A stretch of DNA of 64,000 bases from Negaprion brevirostris (lineage: Eukaryota), in contig JARDVH010000132.1 of assembly GCA_030324005.1 (NCBI GenBank), positions 122,498,172 through 122,562,171 on the forward strand, written 5' to 3'. Under the pieces are notes generated by a model, which saw only the letters and a list, made by a program, of their open reading frames with translations, made no database searches and was not told where the DNA came from. The position numbers and the translations under genes were made by a program. This document shows positions 13,910 through 61,319 of the stretch, one piece after another. Positions within the stretch are counted from its first letter, which is position 1, and every line of letters starts with the position of its first letter.

Positions 13910-14100
13910 CAACAGCATGGCCAGTGCACTTAACCAGCATGTCTTTTGGACTGTGGGAGGAAACTGGAGCATCCAGAGGAAACCCACGCAGACACAGGGA
14001 GAACATGCAGACTCCACACAAACAGTGACCCAAGCTGAGAATTGAACCCGGTCCCTGGCGCTATGGCACAGCAGTGCTAATCACTGCTAACATGCTGCCC
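13910..14100 (-). mobile_element. HE1-like V-SINE (5' half)
   Basis: ggactgtgggaggaaactggagc...attgaacccggtccctggcgct...gcagtgctaa. Confidence 0.8.
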
Positions 14101-23830: not shown

Positions 23831-24139
23831 CACCACAGTGTTGTTTAGTCAGAAAGAGTGTTTTCTCACATTAAACCTAGCGTGCAGAATGTGCAATATT
23901 TAAATCAAGATCTTCCTCAAGTCTTGAAGCATTTTGCTATTTACCTACTCTGATTAGGAATGCAAAAGATTGAGTATGATTAAAAAAACTTCAATTTCTG
24001 GACATTCTCAGGAGGTTAGGCAGCATCTTTGAGGGAGAAAAACAACATCTGTCAGAACAAACATCGACTTGAACCATAAGCATTTGTAAGATGTTCATTT
24101 GTAACTAGAACTGGCTTGGACTTGATGTTGTCCTTTAGA

Positions 24140-32459: not shown

Positions 32460-32685
32460 TAACCTCACATATTTACCCTGCTAATTTCCTGACACTAAAG
32501 GGCATTTTAGCATGCTAATCCACCTAACCTGCACGTCTTTGGACTGTGGGAGGAAACCGGAGCAACTGGAGGAAACCCATGCAGACAAGGGGAGAATGTG
32601 CAAACTCCACACAGACAATGATCCAAGGCCCAATTGAACCTGGGCCTTCACTGTGAGGCAGCAATGCTAACAACTGTGTCACCAC
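32460..32685 (-). mobile_element. HE1-like V-SINE
   Basis: cacctaacctgcacgtctttggactgtgggaggaaaccggagc. Confidence 0.85.
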
Positions 32686-37671: not shown

Positions 37672-37990
37672 TAGAATCACTACAGTGCAGAAGTAGGCCA
37701 TTCGGTCCATCGAACCTGCACTGACAACAATCCCACCCAGGCCCTATCCCCATAATCCCATGTGTTTACCCTGCTGGTTCCCTTGATACTAAGGGACAAT
37801 TTACCATGGCAAATCCACCAAATCTGCTATCTCTGGAATGTGGGAAGAAACCGGAGCACCCAGAGGAAACCCACACAGACATGGGGAGAAAGTGCAAATT
37901 CTGCACAGACTGTTATCCAAGGCTGGAATTGAACCCGGGTTCCCGGCACTGTGAGGCAGCAGTGCTAACCTCTTGTGCCAGTGTGCTGCC
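37672..37990 (-). mobile_element. HE1-like V-SINE, full length
   Basis: Tail tagaatcactacagtgcagaagtaggccattcgg through head gaggcagcagtgctaacc. Confidence 0.88.
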
Positions 37991-39618: not shown

Positions 39619-41506
39619 NNNNNNNNNNNNNNNNNNNNNNNNNNNNNNNNNNNNNNNNNNNNNNNNNNNNNNNNNNNNNNNNNNNNNNNNNNNNNNNNNN
39701 NNNNNNNNNNNNNNNNNNAGGCCATCTTAGATTTTTGTTCAGTGAAGAAATCAAAAGTATGGCAAAAGGGCAAGAAAGTGGATGTGAGGAATATCAGATC
39801 AGCCATGATCCTACTGAATGGCAGCGCAGACTCAAGGGGCCAAACAGCCTACTCCTATTCCTTTTACTTATGGTCTTTTGCTCTCTTTGCCAATTGCAAA
39901 CTGCTCATTGAGCTTTGAAAGAAAATCGCAGGAGCTTATTTCGTTACATTTATTAGTTAGTCGAGAGACGCTGTCAACAAATAAATTGTGCACTAACCTT
40001 CCAATTAAAATGACTAAAATTTACCAGAGATCTACTTTGTGAGAGACGACTTAATTAGCAACAGTATATGTTTAATAGGAAAATCTTTTTTGATACTATG
40101 CAAAATTAATGGGTTCTTCCCTTCAAATGATAAAACAAACCATGAATAAAAGAGTCAGAACAAAGTCACAAAGCATGAGTAAAAGGAGACAAAAAAGTAN
40201 NNNNNNNNNAAAGTACTTAACAATCAAGTTCAACTATATAAATCAAACATAATCATTCTGTTCTAACTAAATGATTTAATCTAAAACGGCATTGAAATAA
40301 TTTTCTTCTTGCTTTTAGTAAATTTCCCCACTCTCACTCACCTATAAGATTGCATTGTACTGGGATCAAACTCTAGGCCTTATCATACTGACCAATTGAA
40401 ATATTCAGTGATGAATATAGTACTCTGGCCTACAGTTTGCAGGAGATACAGGTGGAATCAGTGGGTCAAGATTGGACATCTTGCCTTTGGAGGCCAGTCG
40501 AAAAATTCCGGTGGAAAATAAAAATGTCTTACTGCTAATTTTGATTCCAGAAATATTTTCCCAAAATATTTTCTGTGCAATCTACAAACTTTTCTGCTAA
40601 TGTCAGCGAAGTTCAAGTAGTCTATTTTGCTTCAGATTGGGGAATAAATATTGCCCAGAATACTGGGAAGCCCTGATCTTCCTTGGATGGTGCCGAGATC
40701 TCTTCATCCAAAAGGAGAGGCCTGGCCTAGATTCAATGTCCCTTCTAAACGATAACATCTCTGACAGTGCAGCACTCCCTTAAGTACTGCATTGGGATTG
40801 TCAACATAGATTAGGCACTCAGATCCAGAGCACAGCTTCTGATTGACAGGGGAGTGTGTAACCACTAACAAGCCATTGCTCTATGCTTCAGGCAAAGATG
40901 AATTTACTACCAAGATATTCAAGATTACTCAGTACATTGTTTTCCAATGGGTAGCTTCATACAATACAGCACATTATCTATTTTTAATTAAATTTCCTGC
41001 TATAACACCTTTAAATGGGGATTTATAAGGAATGATGACGGGTGCCATTTGATATAGACAAATGAGAAGTGAAAGCATGGATAAAGATGATTTGTGAAGC
41101 TGTGTTTACAAAGCTGGTACTACAGAAGCTAATTCAAAGCAAGTCACAATACTCTGCATTTATCTGCAGTCACATGAATGAAGTCACAAGTAATCCTCTT
41201 TGTCTTAACATTAAGATTAAAAACACATTATTGTATCCAATTAGTTACTCCTCATAATATCTCCTGTGGCAGAGTGCCCACTCGATTAATCCCAATGGAA
41301 TGATTCTCCACATTAAAGACTCTACATAAATACAAACTGTTGCATTTGTTTTACAATCAAGATCAGTAATGCACGTAATGTTTAATATTCAGGAGGGTGG
41401 TAACTGACTGGTGTCTGACACCAAAGCTTTATTTATCACTCTTTTCCTATGCATATCCCCAACTGTTTTTATTATCCTTCACCACAACGATAGGTGAAAG
41501 TTGGGA

Positions 41507-41796
41507 TTCATAGAATCTCTACAATGCAGGAGGCGGCCATTTGGCTCATCGAGTTTGCACCTACCACAATCCCACCCAGGATCTATTCCCATAACCCCAC
41601 ACATTTACCCTGCTAATCCCCCTGAAATGAGGGTCAATTTAGCATGGCCAATCCACCTATCGGAGGAAACCGGAGCACCCGGAGGAAACCCACGTAGACA
41701 CGGGGAGAACATGCAAACTCCACACAGTCACCCAAGGCCGGAATTGAACCTGGGTCCCTGGCACTGTGGAGCAGCAGTGCTAACTACCGTGCCACC
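41507..41796 (-). mobile_element. HE1-like V-SINE
   Basis: ggaaaccggagcacccggaggaaacccacg...ggaattgaacctgggtccctggc. Confidence 0.88.
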
Positions 41797-42172
41797 TGGG
41801 ATTAGCCAAGTACTCAAAACCTCAGCTAAATATAGGGATCAAGGGGTTAATTGGATCGGTCAGTGAATCCCATAAAGTGCTGTACATGAACTTAAAGTGA
41901 TTATGGGGCATCAGTTATATTTTCCTTTTTTTGCAAATCCTCTGCTTTGTTTTTTTAAAAGCAATATCCAATATAAAAACAGGTCTTTAAAACATAGGAT
42001 TTTCTCAGCATTTCCTATTAATTTTAAACTTTTCTCCCTTTATTCACACAAATTAAAACTCGAACCTCCAAAATAACAATTAGAATAAATTTTGAAAATC
42101 GTTATTAGAAGTTCAGCATCAGTGTTTAAAAAGAATGCTCATTTTGGGAGTGCTGCATTGTCAGAGATGGTG

Positions 42173-42559
42173 GGGGCGATTCTCCCATCCCACTGCAAGG
42201 GGGGGAGCGGGGCCTGATGGGGTGATCAGTGGGGATGGGTCCTGCTGACACACTGCAGTTGGGATCGGAGGAGGAGGGAGGGAGGCCAGCGACCGGGACT
42301 GGCCAGCCTGTCAGGAGGCCAACAGTGCAGGACTACTACACATGCTGTGCCCTCCACCAAGTCAGCTTGGCACATGCACAGTGGCCCATTCAGTGCTATG
42401 CTGCCAGCGGGGAGAAGTCCCACACTCAGCTTTTTAAGAGTGATTCACGCTATTGCATTCAGCAGTGCACAGAGCGTGGGAGATTCACTTTTAAAATCCG
42501 CTGAAAAAAATCAACGCAATTTACTGCAATTTTCACACATATTTTGGGAGAATTACCCC
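42173..42559. mobile_element. MITE with terminal inverted repeats GGGGCGATTCTCCCA...TGGGAGAATTACCCC, inserted in a Deu-SINE
   Basis: Inverted termini visible; flanks join into gtgctgcattgtcagagatg/ctatcttttggacaaaaggttaaactgag. Confidence 0.65.
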
Positions 42560-42879
42560 TGCTATCTTTTGGACAAAAGGTTAAACTGAGATCCCATTTG
42601 ACTTCTCAAGTACGTAAAATTTTCCAATCTCTATGGCACTTTTCACAAGCTTCAGCCAGAGAAGCACTTTCAAACTATATTTACAGTGGCTATATAGCAA
42701 ATTATATATAGCAAAGTCCCACAAAAAAATCAACGAGTTAAATAACCTGATTCAGTGATGCTAGCTGAGGGATAAATGCTACCCAGGATATTTAAAGAGC
42801 ATCACAGGATCTTTTCCATGAAGTAAGAGAGCAGAAGGGGGTCTCAGTACATCATCCTGTTCGAAAGACAGAACCTCTG

Positions 42880-43216
42880 CATAATCAAGGATCTCGCGTG
42901 CCCCGGACATTCTCTCTCCCCACTTCTTCCCTCAGAAAAAAGATACAAGAGTCTGAAAACACATACCAATCGAGTCAACAGCTTCTTCCCATTGCCATCA
43001 GATGTTTGAATGGTTCTATCACACATTAAGCTGATCTTTCTCTTCACTCTATCTGTAACTGCACCACTATATTCTGCATCCTATCCTTTCCTTCTCCCCA
43101 TGTACTCTATGAAGTGTGTTTTGTCCGTAACAGCTCACAAGAAACAATACTTTTCACTGTATCCCAATATATTTGACAATAACAATTCAGAATTGAGTTG
43201 ATTCGATTCAGTTCAA
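42880..43216 (+). mobile_element. 5'-truncated Rex1/Babar LINE (ORF end plus 3' UTR) inside a minus-strand Deu-SINE
   Basis: IIKDLACPGHSLSPLLPSEKRYKSLKTHTNRVNSFFP; ctctg present on both sides (42875-42879, 43217-43221). Confidence 0.75.
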
Positions 43217-44056
43217 CTCTGACATTGCAACACTCAGTGCTGCACTGAAGCCAAGTGGGTCTCGAACACAAAGCAGTGAGAGTGCTAGCGCTAACCCTTG
43301 AAAGACATTTCAGGCTGCCTTGGTTTCCCTTGTATCTGCCTCCTCAAGTTCAATAATTACACTGCAGCTGGTTCTGTTCTGCTAATACTTGTGAACTAAA
43401 TGGCATCACTGCTGATAGTCAGTTAAGAAGAATGCAATTCATAAAGTGGCCCCAAGGCCACAATCATATCAGCCGTGGTCACACTGAATGACAGAACAGG
43501 TTCAAGAGGCTGAATGAATTACCCCTGCTCCCAATTTGTATGTTCTGAATGCATTCAGTATTATGATTATGCCTGCAGGCCCACTTAGCAAATCTGTGGC
43601 AGCTGCGGTTTGTTGCAGTTTCTGCTAATAACTGGAAAATCTTTGTTGTTCCATAATAAACAAAACCGACAAGATGTGGCAGGGTACAGGGAAATGCTAA
43701 CTGCTTTGAAGAAGTCACAAAGCACATGCAGCACACGATCTATTCTTGGAATCTTTAGGAGGAAGAAATGTGGTCAATAAAGTTAAGTGTACACTATATG
43801 CATTTAGTTTGTCCAGTTGGACTATTATGGTAACCGAGAAGAAGCTGCAGCTCCTAGTTTGTTAATAGCATGTACAACTGGACAAGGATAAGGATCAGAA
43901 GAAACTAAATTGGAAAATTGTTTAGAAAGTTCCATATTGGCAACCTGAAAGGCAGTGGTTGCACAAGAGAAGAGACCTGTGGACAATCATTAGGAGTCAC
44001 TAATAAAACGCTGCCAAATAAGTAATGGCGCAATGGTATCCACATGGAACACTTAC

Positions 44057-44276
44057 TGGACAATTCATCAGGTTCAGTCTTCAAACTAGATAGATCTTCC
44101 AGGGAAGTTTCATTTCCTTCAGCACCAACTCCTCTTCCCCTGGGTCCCATCATATTGGAGCGTCTCCTTTCATGAATCTCATCAGAGATCATCTCTAGGT
44201 TCTTCAAGGCAGCTTTGTACTGCCCTTTGGCTGCTGACAGCTTGGCTTGTAGTTCATCTACATTTTTCTTCAGTTG
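44057..44276 (-). CDS. SH3BP5: SH3BP5 exon, QLKKNVDELQAKLSAAKGQYKAALKNLEMISDEIHERRRSNMMGPRGRGVGAEGNETSLEDLSSLKTEPDELS
   Basis: tgttag acceptor, gtaagt donor; phase 0 to 1. Confidence 0.97.
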
Positions 44277-45349
44277 CTAACAAATCAAAAGCAGAGAATT
44301 TAAAATACAGCCACACTTTCCAAACTTGTGTACAATTTGATAAAGGTTTAGTTAATCATAGAATCCCTACAGTGGAGAAGGCTATTCAGCCCATCGAGTC
44401 CACACCGATTCTCTGACAGGATCTTACCCAGGCCCTCTCCCCTGTCAAATCCCTGTAACCCCACCCATTTATGATGGAAAATCCATCTAATCTGTTAAAT
44501 GCATCAAATCCCAATTTGTCAAGAGGTTACAGGGCTAGGCTCATGTTCTGTCAGAAGCTCCCACATCATTGGAGGTAAATGAAAGAAATTTATTCCAAAG
44601 ACTACTTTTTAAAAATCACATAACATAAACAACACAAAAACAGATCATTCAACCCAATTTGGCTTACACTCCTTGCAAACCTTCTCTGGCTCTGATTATC
44701 TCTTCCCACCAGATACTTTATCCCTCTATTCCTTTCTCTCTCATTTTTGCATCGATCCTCTCCTTAAATGTACCACTATTACCTGTTTCAATGTAGCAGC
44801 AGTTTCCACATTCTCATCACCCTACGCTCATGAAGGAATTTGAGAGTTCTAGCATGTCACTGTGGTAACCCAGTTTTCTTTTGTTCTATCCACCTTTGAT
44901 AGAGAAATTGCAGATCCTGCCATTTTACATATAATCTGGAAAAGGACACCGTAAGACTGCCCTGCTTTTCAATCAGCTCACAGCTGATGCTGATCTCAGC
45001 TTCATTTTCACACCTTTACTCTATAATCCTTCAATACCCTTACCAAAGAAAAATCTACTTCAGCCTCAAAAAGGTCAAGCAGACAGCCAGCATGCTTTTT
45101 GGGGAACAGAGTTCCAGAATCTCTCTATCCTTTCTGTGAAGGAATGCTTCCCACAATCAATCCTCAATGGGTTGCATACACTGATGAGTGAACCTGTGTA
45201 ACAAACTCAGCAGCCAGTACAGACCAAAGCATTTAGCGCACTGTAAAATGCACAAAAAAACAAAAGACTTGCAGGATCCGTAACAAAAAAAAACACGAAA
45301 TATCCAAGCTAATTTAAATTGTAAACAAAATTGAATAGAATATCAATTT

Positions 45350-45599
45350 CCAAAAGTGAAAATGTTGGACAATCTCAGCAGCTGTAGCAGCATCTGTAAG
45401 GAGAGAAAAGAGCTGACATTGAGCCCAGGTGACCCTTTGTCATCATCTGGACTTGAAGCATTGGGCTTTGACAAAGGGTCATCTGGACTCGAAACGTCAG
45501 CTCTTTTCTCTCCTTGCCGATGCTGCCAGACCTGCTGAAATTTTCCAGCATTCTCTCTTTTGGTTTCAGATTCCAGCATCCACAGTAATTTGCTTTTAT
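45350..45599. mobile_element. Penelope-like element remnant with inverted duplication (arms 45350-45442 and 45469-45563)
   Basis: Arms of about 90 bp are reverse complements; contains gatgctgccagacctgctga and a hammerhead-like core; PLE assignment is inference. Confidence 0.65.
45463..45503 (+). ncRNA. Minimal type I hammerhead ribozyme motif (U3-A8 variant)
   Basis: GGGCU-UUGACAA-A-GGGUC-AUCUG-GACUC-GAAAC-GUC-AGCUC; stems I and II pair; ACGU palindrome replaces stem III. Confidence 0.65.
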
Positions 45600-46773
45600 C
45601 TACAATATCAATTTATCACGTTATCCCAAGTGCAGATAAACCCGTTCTGCATTTATCATTCTGTGGATGTGAACACTGCTTTAGTAGTTTGTGGGCTGGG
45701 ATTTAAATTTTTATTTAATGAGGAACTGCAAGAGTAAGGATGATATGCTTAAATCTATAACTTCAGGTCAGGCGTTCACAAATACCAACAGCAAACGCAT
45801 TAGAACAGATGAGGGAGATGCAGTAAAATAGGGCGATTTTATTTTTGTCTTTCCATCAATTCCCTTTACTTTGGCTCCGTTCTACAATTTGACTGCTTGC
45901 TCTGATCGAATTCAATTGACTTCCTTTTGACAGAAACATCACACCCAGGCTCGATCTTCACCTACTGTCCACTTCCAAGAGAGATAGTTAGCTACTGACC
46001 TGAAATGAGAACCCTGCAGATCTTAGTGGAGCATGGAGTGGGGTTCAGGAGGAAAACCTAACCTCCCCACAGCCAAAAAAACCCACTCGATTGCAGTGGC
46101 TGGACACTTAAGTGCCCATGACCACTCAGTACTAGCTTCAGCACAAAAACTCTCACTTGCTTTCTCATCATCACAAAGCCTGCCACCAGTGATAAATGAA
46201 CAGTGTGCCAAAATAACTGTTTTTCCATTAGCATTAGGCTGATGCAGTGTTGTCCAATATATTAGTTACTGGTCTCAAGGCTAGTTTGGAATCCAGATGT
46301 AGCTAACTGCATTTCTGATTGGTAAAAACAAACATGGTAATAGGCATCATCATTGGCCATGTGGTTTCAGCATTGATATTTACATGGTCANNNNNNNNNN
46401 NNNNNNNNNNNNNNNNNNNNNNNNNNNNNNNNNNNNNNNNNNNNNNNNNNNNNNNNNNNNNNNNNNNNNNNNNNNNNNNNNNNNNNNNNNCATGGTCAAT
46501 TCATGTGAAATTTTATCTTTTGATGCAATTTCTGCTTAAATTACAGGATGGAAAACAGTGTGTGAGTGTTTTTTGATTGTTGTTATCGCCACTTCCTTGG
46601 TTACTGAATATACATGTGTGAACACCTTTACCTGTACTAGGTTTACGTAAAGCATTCTCAACCAAAATATATCTGTATCATCTATGCTTGTTCAACAATT
46701 CATACTGAATTTTTCCTATGGCCATAGTAATACAAGCAATGGATAGCATAGAGAATGTCAAGAAAATGCTTAC

Positions 46774-46816
46774 CTCTAGCTGCAGGTAATATTTTCCTTT
46801 GAGTTCAAAATAAGGT
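46774..46816 (-). CDS. SH3BP5: SH3BP5 exon, (K)PYFELKGKYYLQLE
   Basis: tgtgtag acceptor, gtaagc donor; 43 nt, phase 2 to 0. Confidence 0.95.
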
Positions 46817-47273
46817 CTACACAAGAGAGAAAGTGCACATATTACAATGAGTTATATGGTTTAATTGCAAATAAACTGTGTATAATGATAAACAGGTGGA
46901 GGGTATTAATTGGGTTGTTACTTGGGGATATGTAAATAAACACTGACTGATACTATGATGTTCCCAAGTCTAGAAGGATATGCCTGTAATGTCTCACACT
47001 GTGAATAAATCTCAACTGAGCAAAGATCAGTTTCAGTTTTATCCTTCACCGACTAGCTATCAGGAGTTATACCACAAGGCGATGGTGCATGGTTGAAACC
47101 AAAGATAAAATTAGCAGGCTGTGCTACTAATTTTTCTTCTCAATATGGCAAGAGATACAAAAGAACGAACTTTTGTTGATATAGCACCTATCACAACCTC
47201 AGGATAGCCTGGAGTGGGTTTGAAGGGAAGGGTGCAGAGTGCAGGATGCAGGGTTTGGGTGGAGATCACTCAC

Positions 47274-47404
47274 TTGCTTTTATTAATGGCTCTTTTCAGT
47301 TTTTTCTCCAACTGCTTCATCCTGCTCATCGCTGCGTTGTACTTCATCGCTGTGTCTTTGTGTAACAACTCACTTCTCGTCTTGGTCTGCTCTGCTTCCA
47401 TGAC
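47274..47404 (-). CDS. SH3BP5: SH3BP5 exon, VMEAEQTKTRSELLHKDTAMKYNAAMSRMKQLEKKLKRAINKS(K)
   Basis: cccag acceptor, gtgagt donor; coiled-coil SH3BP5 domain. Confidence 0.97.
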
Positions 47405-48837
47405 CTGGGCGGAGAAAGAATCAGAGTTGAGAGCTCTACTCACGAACATGTAGTAGCGGCCTTTTAAAAAATTAACTTACAAAAAAAATACACACACAGC
47501 CAGGGCCACTAATGGTCCATTCATACTTTGTTTAAATTTTGTCTGTGAGAGGAAGGATTTCCAGTTCAAGGGACTCTGACAGAGATCAGAATGGCTGACT
47601 TGGACATCGAAGCCTCAGGAGCCAGCAACCACAGGAATGGAGAGGGGACCTGGAAAGGATCTTCCTTCCCTGTTCCGGAGTCTCAGGATTTTACCTAGAG
47701 GTCTTATTGTGTGATCTGAGGAATGGAGGTGAGGTGAAGGTTCCTAAAGATGGGAAGGAGGGGGAAAGAGATCAGCCTCTCAAACCAAGCAGGTATGAAC
47801 AGAAATGGCCAAAGGCTTCATCAGCAAGATGATCCCTCAAATCTCAGCTGTGATAACCTCTCAATACATTCAAGGACCTCAGAAGGGTGGGAAAAGCAAG
47901 TGGTATAACACTTTTGGATGTTGCATGTTGACCTACCCTGTATTCTCATGCGCAACACTCCTCAAACCAACATACATTGCAGCTCCACTCGGAACACTCC
48001 CCCCAGGCATTCAAAAACCTCAGCTGAACAGCCAGCTCTCACATCTGCCCTTACCTTTGTGACATCCATCACAGGTGCCTCAGTTACCCTTCACAAATAT
48101 TGTTCTTCCCTCCTCTCCACGGAAGCATTTCTCATGTAACTCTGTTTCCTCTCTTTAGACAAGTAGGCAAAGAACTGCAGGGACAGGCAAGAACTGGGAT
48201 GTGGAGGGGAGTGCAATGGTGGTTCCAATGATAGCCAACCAGAAGGTCACTGGCAAATGGTACCCACCTGCACCTCAGGTAAGGATATTTGCTCCTGGAA
48301 GTTGCAAATGTCACCAATTACTTGCCCTGAAAATCTGAGCCTCATGAAGCAGATATTCACACACTAGAAAAGCAGATCCTCTACCTACGGATTCTGCATT
48401 GGGGTAGATTGGATTTTGAAAACACATAACACATATGGAGCACCAGCCGTCACTTCCTCCTTTTAACTGGCCTATATTTTCAAGTCATACATATCCACAA
48501 TTATGGTCAATGTTAACAGATATGATAAGGAAATTGACCAATTAGGAAGCTCCAACAATAACAGATATCATTTGTGATTGCACAGGTCAAGAGGAGGTCA
48601 TTGCCCCAATAGAACGTGGCTGAATTTATGGAGAAACAAATTCATCTGTCATTCTTCACTGTGTGGACTGCCATTCAAACACTTCGCAAAAGCATCAGAT
48701 TGAATCAGAATTCAACAGCAATAATGAAAAATAACCAAAATGAGTCACTTAAACGATGTGCAATTGGCATCTGTTTTTCCATTCCACATTGGCAGGAAAT
48801 AATATAGAATTATCTCAGGTACAGGCGCAACAATGAA

Positions 48838-49118
48838 ATGGGTGACATGGTGGTTAGCACTGCTGCCTCACGGCGTCAGGGACCCGAGTTCAATACACGG
48901 CTTGGGCCACTGCCTGTGCAGAGTCTGCACATTCTCCCCATGTCTACGTGGGTTTCCTCCCACAGTCTGAAAGATGTGCTGGTTAGGTGCACTACCCATG
49001 CTAAATTCTCTCTCATTGTACCCAAACTGACACCAGAGTATGGCGACTGGGGGATTTTCACAGTAACTTCATTGCATTGTTGATGTAAGTCTACTTGTCA
49101 CGCTAAAGAATAAATAAT
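48838..49118 (+). mobile_element. V-SINE with alternative 3' tail
   Basis: HE1-like head; tail ggattttcacagtaacttcattgc...atgtaagtctacttgtcac..aataaataa. Confidence 0.8.
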
Positions 49119-49874
49119 ACTTCTGAACCACAACGTTCAGTTTCAACAGTTTACCCCTTGCCTCTAGGGATGGGATTTTCCAGCCACGCTCACCCNNNNN
49201 NNNNNNNNNNNNNNNNNNNNNNNNNNNNNNNNNNNNNNNNNNNNNNNNNNNNNNNNNNNNNNNNNNNNNNNNNNNNNNNNNNNNNNNNNNNNNNNTCACC
49301 CCCAGACCAGAAAATCCTGCCAGGAGACAGCTGAGCTATTGCAAGGTCCATGCCCCGCCTGCAACAAGTCTTGGTGGGCAGGATGGGACAACTCCTCCCT
49401 AGGAGTCTAATGCCTACAAGTGGCAACTGTAAATCTGAAACAAAGCTAACGGGGTGAAATCCCTCCCAACGGTAACCGTAGTTGGAGTAATTATAATTAC
49501 AAAATGGGGCTTTCCTGTTTTGTCATCACAAGCCCAATAACAAACAAACAAAACACTGCAGTGCCCAGAGGAATATGAGAACATCACTATTTCTTTTTTC
49601 ACAATTAGGAAGGGGTTGTTGTTGCAGGTTTGACACGTCCCTGGCACCGACCACGTGACTCCTCATCCTTGCCTCATAGTGCAAAGATTTCCAGGTAGTT
49701 ACAGTAATAGGTTGGGCAAATGCAAATTCCAGATTAATCAGTCTGCAAGGAGGAAAAACGCAACTTCCTGTTGACAGCTGCAGTCAGTGAGAGGTTTTAG
49801 CTTCGACTGCAGTGATCGCAGTCCTAAATGAGGAAGTGTCGTGATATGGCAGAGAAAGGAACCTAGCAAAAGGA

Positions 49875-50990
49875 GTTTGTTCTCCTCAGCACAGAGGAAG
49901 CTGTGGGGAAATTTAACAGGCATGTTCAAATTTATTAAGTGTATTGATAGAATAAATAAGGAAAAATTGTTTCCAAAGGCGGAGAAGTCATTATAGTCAG
50001 AGAACAATAATTTAAGACAATCAGGAGGGAAGTTTTTTTTAGAAAACACAGCAAATTGCTACCATCTGGAATACATTAATTGAAAGGTTGCTGGAGGCAG
50101 ATTCAACTGTAATTTCAAAAGGGAATTGGGAAAATACTGGAAAACAAAAGATTTGCCGGGCTACAAGGAAGGAGCAGAGGAACCCATTGGATAACTTTTG
50201 TAAAGAGTAGATACAGACATGATAGAACGAGGCCATTTGGCCTATGCTGTAAGATTCTACAATGATTGAATTTGGGCAGCAGTCTTGGGGTTAGACAGTG
50301 ATCAGGTGGTCTGGCTCTGATTTTACCATCTGTAATGCCAACATAATGGTGTCTAAGCAGAAGTTGCTTCTGCAATGAATAGAGCAATAATTCTAGACTC
50401 AACTGAGGAAGTGTTATATTTCACAAACCACTGATGTTGGCAAGCAGCATCTTTATCAAGAAGCACTTCAAAGGGAAATTTACAGCACCAAAACAGTGTG
50501 TTATTCAACTCCTTTGTCCATAGCCCTGTAGGTCACTGCACCTCAAGTGTAACACCAAATGTTTTGTTAAATATGATGAGGGTTGCTGCCACCACCAGCA
50601 TTCCAGGCAGAGACTTCCACAGTCTCAGTCTCATCACCCTTAGGGTGAAACAATTACAGCACAACTTTTCACTAATCTATCACCAATTATTTTAAACCTA
50701 CATATCCCCTGGCTTTTAAACTCTCTGCTAATAGAAATAGATCCTTCTTATCCAGTTTATCAAGGTCGCTCAATTTTATATGTCTCAATTAAATCTTCTG
50801 TCAACTACTTCTTTTACAAAAGTAAACACCTCAATCCATCCACAACCTTTTCTTATGTCTATAATTCTCTATGACTGTATAGTAACATCCTCATAAATCT
50901 CCCAGTACAACTGTATCCTCTTGTAAGGCAGTGACCTCAACTGTACACATGTTCAAGCTGCCATCTCACTAGTGTTGTACACAGTTCTAG
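49875..50990. mobile_element. Old CR1 3' fragments (+ 49875-50260, - 50500-50990)
   Basis: Degenerate matches to the CR1 3' regions elsewhere in the window. Confidence 0.5.
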
Positions 50991-51475
50991 CCTAAGTTTA
51001 AGGGGAATGTTTTAGAGTTCAGTTTTGTTCTACAGGCAGTCGCTGTGTCTGGAAAACAGGTAGGTTAGATGCTGGGTAAGGAGGATAATTACTCGTTTAG
51101 CCATGAGGTGTTTATTTAGGAAATAAATAATGAATTCTTGTTTATAGATGAAAAGTCCCCTGAATTTTTTGGTTTAAAAGGAATGGAAGGTGGGTTTAGG
51201 TATATAGGACAAAAGATCCCTAATTTGTCAGTAGGATTACTCCTGGAGCAAAGCATCCGATCCTGTTTCATAACATACCTTGGGAAATCAGATTCAGCAT
51301 CCTACAGAAGGAAATGTGGGAGAGAAAACCAAATGAACATTCCAAGGAAGACCAAGATTTTCTTTGCACCCTAGTCTCAGTGAGTCCAAAATCTCAGAAA
51401 AGCATCCGACAGACAGGCTCCAAGGAGACTGGTTGAGGATATAAACCTGTGGGATCGGATTAGGGTTCAACATAC

Positions 51476-51640
51476 CCGCTGTGTTGCATGATTAAGCATC
51501 TCCTGCCATGCTGAATCAAACTGCCGTTCCTCATCTTCCAGCAGCCTCTGTTCAGCCAGAGCAATAGTCTCCTTGGCTGCCCGCAACACCTCAGTGGCTC
51601 TTTGAAAATCCTGAGTAGCTTTCTGGGCCTCCAGCTGTGC
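51476..51640 (-). CDS. SH3BP5: SH3BP5 exon, AQLEAQKATQDFQRATEVLRAAKETIALAEQRLLEDEERQFDSAWQEMLNHATQR
   Basis: ccccaaag acceptor, gtatgt donor; 165 nt; close match to recalled human Sab. Confidence 0.97.
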
Positions 51641-51759
51641 CTTTGGGGAAAGAAAATAAACAGGGCACTTAGAAGAGATAAGAATATGTGAAACCAAAAG
51701 TCCTTGACAAAGTTTAACGCAGGACAATTAACGGGATTCAATTTCCATTCCTTCTATCA

Positions 51760-59077: not shown

Positions 59078-59388
59078 GATAGAATCCTATAGTGCAGAAG
59101 GAGGCCACTCAGCCCATCAGGTCTGCACCCAACACAATCCCACCCAGGCCCTATTCCTGCAACCACTCATATTTACCCTGATAATCCTCTGACACTAAGG
59201 GCAATTAAGCATGGCCAATCCACCTAACCTGCACATCTTTGGACTATGGAAGGAAACTGGAGCACCTGGAGGAAACCCACAGAGATACAGGGGGAATGTA
59301 CAAACTCCATACAGACAGTGACCCAAGCCAGGAATCGAACCCAGGTCCCTGTCACTGACAGGCAGCAGTGCTAATCACTGTGCCACCC
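59078..59388 (-). mobile_element. HE1-like V-SINE, full length
   Basis: tagaatcctatagtgcagaaggaggcc...ggaatcgaacccaggtccctg...cactgtgccaccc. Confidence 0.9.
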
Positions 59389-60400
59389 TCTTCAAGTAAA
59401 ACATGTATATTTATACATGTAAAATACTAGCTGCTCTTCCATGGCATATTGAAAACATGGATCAAGACTAACAATGAAATTTTAAAAAACGTCATTTTTA
59501 AAGAACTTTTCTTGATGTTAGGACATTCTAAAGCATTTTTCAATCAATGGAATGAGTGAAAGTTTTAATAAGCTGGGGGTCATATGCAATTTGTAGGGTC
59601 CCAGCATAACTGAACATCAAAGGAGAGGATTTTTACAGCCTTGCTCGAGTGAGACTGGAAATTCTTGCGCGAGATCAACGGACATTTCTGTTATCTGTCC
59701 CTCACCAGCTCCGATTCTGTGGCAGGCTGGGTGGTAGAATTCCACCACAAGTGTCTGAACCAGCGGATTTTGAACAGAATGATGCAGGAAACTTGGGGAA
59801 AAAACAAAAATCAACAAAAACCCACTGTACTGATTTTTTGAGAGGTCAGGTGAAGGATGAGTGCTCGTAACAATGCAAATGGTTCAGGACTCTTGCTCAC
59901 GCAGTTTGGCAGGGGTAGCTCCATACAAAAACTAAAGGATGCATAGAGTGCTTCTACCAAATTAAGAACTTTTCAGTTGCTGTCACTGTTGTAATGTAGG
60001 AACCACGGCAGCGAATCTATGCACAGCAAGATCTTACAAACAGGAAAATGATAATGACTGGATAATTGGTTTTGTGACATTAGTTGAAGGGTAACTCTTG
60101 GTCAGGACACAAAGGAAAACTCCACTGTTCTTCTTCAGTAACCTTTGGATTAAACATTCTGAAGTGAGATGTTATATCAAACTAGCAAAGAGATTGGGGT
60201 GGGGTGGAAATGGAACTGACTGCACTGCTTTACAGAGAGTCAGCATGCACTAGAAGGGTCAAATTGCCTACTTTGGTCTCATAACGGCTCCCATGTCATG
60301 CTGACATTGCAAATTTATTGTTTCTTCTTACTATCCAAGCATATCTCCGAAGAAACATCCTTATTGAATGGGGAGAATAATATAAAGTTCATCTCCTTAC

Positions 60401-60529
60401 CAGTCGTGTAACTCGCCTGGCTTCCCAATAAGGCTTGGAATCATCTACAGCTTTTCCCACCTTCTTACCGGCTTCATCGAGTTTAACAGTAGCTTCGACT
60501 AAAACAGTTCGAAATTTCTGCCGAGCTTC
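60401..60529 (-). CDS. SH3BP5: SH3BP5 exon, EARQKFRTVLVEATVKLDEAGKKVGKAVDDSKPYWEARRVTRL
   Basis: ttacag acceptor, gtaagg donor; 129 nt; upstream exons lie outside the window. Confidence 0.96.
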
Positions 60530-61319
60530 CTGTAAGGTAAGCAACAGATCTGGTCACACACAAAAAAAAAGACAGCAGCAGTAAACTATTTTAATACTTA
60601 AAAAAGAGGGGTGCAAGTTTCAGTCCACAGTAAACAATGAACATTAACACAAGACAACGGTAGGGCACATGAATCCCTACTTCAATTTACGCCAGGAGTA
60701 CAGCTCCCTCTTCCATTTACAGTGGAAGCATTGGTGTTAATGCTACTTCTCCACTATATGCAGGGAAATAGAAAGGTAATTGTTACCAATCAGGTAATGT
60801 TTTCCTTGTAACTGCCTCACCTACTCATTAGCAAGTGCATCCAGAATTTCATCAGTAAAGTAACTTATTTTTGACAATACAGAAGAATCTTACTTTACCC
60901 AAAAGCAGCAGAACCCATTAAAATCAGGAAGAACTTAATGAGGCAAGAACTTATGGAACTGCTCAAAGGCTCAACTGACAATATAATGCATTAAGTGTGG
61001 CACCTTTGTTACTGACTATGGTGCTGGCAAGTTGTAATTTGCTGATATATGTGGCTGTCTGTAATAAGTGAAGACAAATATAAATGGTGAATTCACTATA
61101 ATTCATCCTGACATCTCTCTCTAAAATTATAACTATGGTGGATGAGAGCAACTGTCCCACTTATTAACACATTGGATCTTATCCATCTCTTACTACAGAT
61201 CATTAACTTTAGGAAGAAACTCACAACTATCAAAATTCATGTCATGTTGGGCAGTCAAAGCACAGAATTCACGCCACACATCATTCAGGGAAAGGTGGAA
61301 GGAGGGATACAAAATTAAA

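Follow-up and report, generated by a model that had tools for sequence, protein, structure and literature searches.

Is a U3-A8 pair in the core of a hammerhead motif the inherited state of the repeat family that carries it, or is it damage to a single copy? This question is raised by positions 45463..45503 (+ strand) of the window, by which we mean the whole 64,000-nucleotide stretch of Negaprion brevirostris DNA that was analysed. A sequence-only reading of this stretch had described a minimal hammerhead ribozyme at these positions, had linked it to Penelope-like elements, and had taken its U3-A8 core for a paired variant of the family rather than for decay.

Results

The hammerhead motif

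The letters were re-read in the window and agree base by base with the earlier description of a minimal type I hammerhead motif with a U3-A8 core. In hammerhead numbering, and with all features on the + strand, the 5′ strand of stem I occupies 45463-45467 and is followed by the core positions U3 (45468), U4, G5, A6, C7 (45472), A8 (45473) and A9, by an extra A at 45475 between positions 9 and 10.1, and by stem II, in which 45476-45480 pair with 45486-45490 (one G-U pair; G10.1-C11.1 is G45476-C45490). Downstream of stem II lie G12-A13-A14-A15.1 at 45491-45494, the palindromic C15.2-G16.2 at 45495-45496 and then U16.1, C17 at 45498, 3′ of which the cut is predicted, and the 3′ strand of stem I at 45499-45503 (one G-U pair). 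The core requirements of a hammerhead are present (a paired 3-8, U4 G5 A6, A9, G12 A13 A14, A15.1-U16.1 and NUH), and every published feature of the min-HHR consensus was found in the motif. When both strands of the window were scanned with a descriptor that admitted either C3-G8 or U3-A8 and demanded G10.1-C11.1, a palindromic 15.2-16.2, NUH, a stem II of at least 4 pairs and a stem I of at least 3, the sole match was 45463..45503, and no second hammerhead-bearing copy exists within the window. The same descriptor matched none of 150 random 62-kb sequences simulated with the dinucleotide frequencies of the window. The motif is not a product of chance.

The count of five pairs out of five that had been given for stem I holds locally, but the family usually ends at 45465, and inside this end stem I comprises just GCU/AGC (3 bp); the two outer pairs are supplied by the local spacer. 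The folding energy of the motif (z -1.7) is weak evidence by itself, and the 37-nt motif alone favours another fold (-8.9 vs -6.7 kcal/mol). Searches with Rfam returned no match at the gathering threshold in the window, and in 40000-50000, where 10 matches with E values up to 5 were obtained, none was to a hammerhead model. Our guess is that the Rfam hammerhead models miss the motif since they expect helix III.

The insertion and its host gene

The motif belongs to an insertion that covers 45350-45600 and consists of an inverted arm, a 22-nt decayed spacer and a full arm. The full right arm (45465..45600, + strand) is a 136-nt repeat unit with the hammerhead at its 5′ end, and its last 37 nt (45564..45600, + strand) form a tail that is confined to this arm, the left arm matching just to the equivalent of 45563. 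The inverted left arm (45350..45442, - strand) begins at position 4 of the core; it retains C7-A8, has a broken GAAA and lacks the tail, and the two arms form an inverted repeat over 45350-45563. In the alignment, the core of the left arm (45436-45442, minus strand) has A8 and has lost two GAAA bases. The inverted copy had been said to carry A8 as well, which is correct, although this arm is silent on position 3, where the junction falls. The spacer between the arms (45443..45464, + strand) aligns as a decayed partial copy of the 3′ half of the hammerhead (equivalent of 45479-45499) and shows CpG-type decay.

The spacer is joined to the full arm at a GCT that is present on both strands of stem I, and a contig of run X7 has a similar spacer before 45465, in a head-to-tail copy. 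The repeated GCT junction suggests template switching at this palindrome. A 46-codon open frame (45465-45602, + strand) spans the whole right arm; a canonical CUGAUGA core would place an ATG in this frame, at which the window has ACA. The frame may be a relic of the gene start of a parent element, and a protein search with it returned no Penelope protein.

On both sides of the insertion lies a 14-nt AT-rich direct repeat, with its left copy at 45336..45349 and its right copy at 45601..45614 (+ strand). The copies are identical at 13/14 letters, an equally good repeat was found at 1 of 8,423 control positions, and the pair is likely a target-site duplication. In the runs X2, X7 and X12, the last of which is possibly an RNA run, contigs of the flank that each differ from the window at 22-32 letters continue into the 3′ end of the element. 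Because these diverged contigs reach this end, the insertion is likely common to related species. Elsewhere in the window, a decayed and far more ancient relative of the 136-nt repeat occupies 23985-24103 (nhmmer E 0.00042), with no recognisable hammerhead core.

The insertion is situated inside an intron of SH3BP5, and the intact motif is antisense to this gene, which is on the minus strand. Exon-bearing frames of SH3BP5 with matches to PF05276 were found upstream of the insertion at 47273..47476 (profile positions 126-171, E 9.7e-10), downstream of it at 43905..44273 (profile positions 188-228, E 2.9e-10), and also at 51470-51727 and 60392-60553, all on the minus strand. Profile positions 172-187 were not found among the SH3BP5 frames above the length cut and may be encoded by a short exon below it. 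SINE-like and LINE-end-like repeats of several families, with 60-85% identity, are scattered over the window (e.g., 13942-14086, 32535-32679, 37829-37973 and 59235-59379); we take them to be of the kind that is present in shark genomes.

The repeat family

Contigs that aligned to 45446-46380 at 80% likeness in four public runs numbered 26,363, 35,727, 41,074 and 920; these are not copy numbers, and they include sister families that share just the 3′ part. Nearly all of the contig depth falls on 45465-45600, and the best-supported loose ends are at 45465, 45519 and 45598-45601; past 45465 and past 45600, the contigs carry unrelated sequence. The 136-nt repeat family is very abundant. Among the joints listed, opposite-strand joints from 45465 occur in at least three of the four runs, and many copies consist of one arm between unrelated flanks, as seen from the loose ends and from the spurious protein P0005 described below.

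The depth over 45465-45477 is at most ~33-43% of that over the next bin. Many related copies end before the core or differ there, and sister subfamilies with C3-G8 may exist. In each genome-size run, contigs in the hundreds align only from 45519 onwards, and their upstream letters are related. Because contigs join only from 45519, sister families are considered to share the 3′ part and to differ in the hammerhead region.

Among the differences from the family that are listed, at least four are private to the window copy (45516, 45518, 45539 and 45553; 83-97% of depth). Neither 45468 nor 45473 is among the listed family-level differences, 45468 being 4 nt from the usual start of the alignments, a place at which differences may have been filtered away. 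Among the places listed for single runs, X1 has no T>C place and two A>G places without a known position, and X2 has its two T>C places in the flank. For positions 3 and 8, this listing of differences between runs is only a hint. Scans for the family DNA gave 0 and 0 matches in viral contigs and 0 and 0 matches in genome contigs; the metagenome contig locus L001 was dropped, as it matched only over the search pattern.

The core in other copies

The state of the family core was tested with spurious open reading frames that had been called from other copies of the repeat, in short contigs, and deposited in protein collections. Their residues were decoded by the codon table, and the frames P0001-P0005 served as an indirect census of copies. 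Six proteins were returned, five of which are family members; four of these reach the core, and their flanks are unlike those of the window, as judged by eye and by alignment. P0004, which does not extend into the core, was left out of the core count, and P0006 (2,987 aa, 37% identity) was rejected as a chance match. P0001-P0003 also contain inverted arms.

In the left arm of P0002, the residues LCQS specify C7-A8. In P0003, the reading of which needs TGA as W and a frameshift, PFVK of the left arm specifies U3 and C7 and WQR of the right arm specifies C7-A8. FDKG in P0005 specifies U3 and A8, and C7 is specified by P0001 and by ALTK in the right arm of P0002, P0001 being silent on positions 3 and 8. 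P0005 is biased, since its query contained FDKG. The informative residues of P0002 and P0003 are in frames other than that of the query and were therefore not selected for.

Among the informative independent arms, U3 was present in 2/2, A8 in 3/3 and C7 in 5/5 (four loci, a small sample), and C3, G8 and T7 were found in none of the informative arms of the four independent loci. On the three calls from P0002 and P0003, the likelihood ratio against decay of the single copy is 41-608 if C3T is assumed to have a rate of 3-11% and G8A one of 20-40%. Because U3 and A8 recur in independent copies and neither C3 nor G8 does, U3-A8 is, on these decoded letters, likely to be the state of the family and not damage to the window copy. 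The claim of a paired family variant is supported by these counts, which include no T7-G8 form, another product to be expected of CpG decay.

The link to Penelope-like elements

The Penelope link that had been proposed for the motif is backed by the anatomy of the insertion. Features of the Penelope type are present, namely a truncated copy in inverted orientation beside the 5′ end, a 37-nt one-sided tail and an AT-rich target, the tail and the target being known at one locus. Described hallmarks of Penelope-like insertions are a 5′ end that carries a truncated copy in inverted orientation and a tail of 30-40 nt on one end only (PMC8557442; PMC8969392), AT-rich targets also belong to the hallmarks (PMC8557442; PMC11167929), and the tail has been traced to two start points of reverse transcription (PMC11167929). 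None of the 133 minus-strand frames in 44.3-64 kb gave a Pfam match to a reverse transcriptase or to GIY-YIG, and protein searches for a coding gene joined to the repeat returned only spurious open reading frames. The motif stands at the 5′ end of a very abundant repeat, and we consider it probable that this repeat is a Penelope-like non-coding end piece and that U3-A8 is its family core.

Discussion

Our preferred account of this insertion is as follows. A Penelope-like reverse transcriptase/GIY-YIG protein, encoded elsewhere, would have copied the RNA of the element into a nicked AT-rich site; two starts of reverse transcription 37 nt apart would have produced the two unequal arms, and U3-A8 in the source RNA would keep a Watson-Crick pair between positions 3 and 8. 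In the Anolis element, loss of the 3-8 pair abolishes cutting and a swap of the pair partly restores it (PMC11167929), and U3-A8 ribozymes are stated to be active in vitro (PMC3088659). In motifs lacking helix III, monomers did not cleave and the cleavage of dimers was low (PMC4209133). The RNA of the present element, which has no helix III of its own, would probably be cut after C17 only slowly, either as a dimer held by two ACGU palindromes or with a protein of the element aiding the fold.

The window copy itself is most likely inert, according to the folding predictions. In the predicted fold of 45330-45620, the pair probabilities of stem I and stem II are 0.0, and the hairpin has an energy of -138.4 kcal/mol. 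The probability of stem II is 0.79 in the right arm alone and 0.0 with the left arm present. The copy is regarded as inert because a single long hairpin is predicted for RNA that spans the two arms, and because SH3BP5 transcribes the strand whose arm has lost part of GAAA.

As the copies begin at 45465, which is upstream of the predicted cut at 45498, their template would have been uncut RNA, as in the Anolis assay. In its most extended form, our proposal is that U3-A8 is fixed in a short element derived from Penelope and present at tens of thousands of loci in a group of sharks, the first such family in a vertebrate; that copies start at the edge of stem I, where the uncut fold marks the 5′ end; and that the weaker U-A pair persists since RNA that is cut slowly can be mobilised uncut. 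We put this extended form forward tentatively and regard it as possible but doubtful.

The same family state could have been reached by a founder effect, through the amplification of one master copy with U3-A8, and the motif would then be a relic freed from cutting. In the Poseidon system of Anolis, insertion in vitro was unimpaired when the hammerhead was mutated, and the template was mainly uncut RNA (PMC11167929), which speaks for such a relic, as do the start of the copies upstream of the predicted cut, the family-level stem I of 3 bp and the preference of the 37-nt motif for another fold. However, positions 3 and 8 have changed in just the combination that preserves their pairing, and neither the rest of the core nor either stem is damaged; moreover, the same swap recurs in Schistosoma elements (PMC4209133) and supports cleavage in vitro (PMC3088659). 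With these points on its two sides, a founder effect appears unlikely to us.

Decay of the window copy alone was first favoured, with three-quarters confidence before the copy data, because C7-G8 would be a CpG. According to this explanation, the family has C3-G8, and in the window copy CpG decay turned C7-G8 into C7-A8 while an unrelated transition produced U3; the CpG-type decay of the spacer and the at least four private changes of the window copy would agree with it. However, C3 is present in 0/2, G8 in 0/3 and T7 in 0/5 of the informative independent arms, both arms in the window carry C7-A8, and the likelihood ratio given above, under its assumed rates, is against it. The U3 and A8 of other copies largely refute decay at the level of the copy, and we now regard it as very improbable. 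Least probable of all is another hairpin element, such as a miniature DNA transposon or a microRNA-like hairpin with an incidental hammerhead look, which the strong hairpin (z -10.9) and a match to MIR169_6 (E 0.00029) might suggest, but this match scores 34 bits where its cut-off is 54 and belongs to a plant family, all of the matches to microRNA families are under their cut-offs, the arms are unequal owing to the one-sided tail, many copies are single-armed with unrelated flanks, and the descriptor had 0/150 chance matches.

U3-A8 as the family core of a Penelope-like end piece, the reading that we prefer, must be seen against what is known of related systems. The class of ribozyme, its U3-A8 variant and the link of that variant to Penelope-like elements are already described. 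According to Perreault et al. (2011; PMC3088659), who first reported natural U3-A8 hammerheads, these ribozymes have the same compensatory swap as the window motif; section 8 of that paper ties them to no Penelope-derived repeat, whereas the motif described here is minimal and is located in a repeat family. The swap is also found in ~1,300 Cercyon motifs of Schistosoma mansoni (Cervera & de la Pena, 2014; PMC4209133). The Cercyon min-HHRs and the window motif both have U3-A8, the extra base between 9 and 10.1, G10.1-C11.1 and a palindromic 15.2-16.2, and both have a short helix I and no helix III. Like the repeat family studied here, the Cercyon motifs are mostly single and dispersed, with some pairs on opposite strands. 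They differ from the present family, which has a vertebrate host, a 5-bp stem II and a different sequence. In Fig. S3 of the same paper, each of the 11 vertebrate motifs has C3-G8 and cartilaginous fishes are not represented, a count that leaves out the consensus drawings of the coelacanth and Xenopus.

In the Anolis Poseidon element PAc (Frangieh et al., 2024; PMC11167929), the hammerhead lies ~100 nt or more upstream of the 3′ end, as it does here, and PAc resembles the window element in its AT-rich target and in the tail between two starts of reverse transcription. PAc is autonomous, has C3-G8 and has been shown to undergo protein-aided cutting, whereas no coding part was found for the repeat in the window. 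The non-LTR retrozymes (PMC7229834; 10.64898/2026.07.22.740005) are likewise non-coding, have a type I hammerhead, and have been proposed to originate from a Penelope-like pLTR. Retrozymes form head-to-tail arrays with one hammerhead per unit, whereas the window has an inverted pair with one intact motif, and no array of the retrozyme type was found in 44000-47500. Tandem retrozymes have been found in one chondrichthyan (bioRxiv 10.64898/2026.07.22.740005). Searches of the openly accessible literature showed no description of a shark family with U3-A8. Compared with all of these systems, the part that looks new is a vertebrate repeat family with a U3-A8 core. A known variant is thereby extended to a very large vertebrate family, and because a CUGANGA search would miss this family, the counts of hammerheads in shark-type genomes are probably too low. 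With thousands of copies to compare, covariation between positions 3 and 8 could be tested on natural sequences, as could the question of whether the hammerheads of Penelope elements need to cut.
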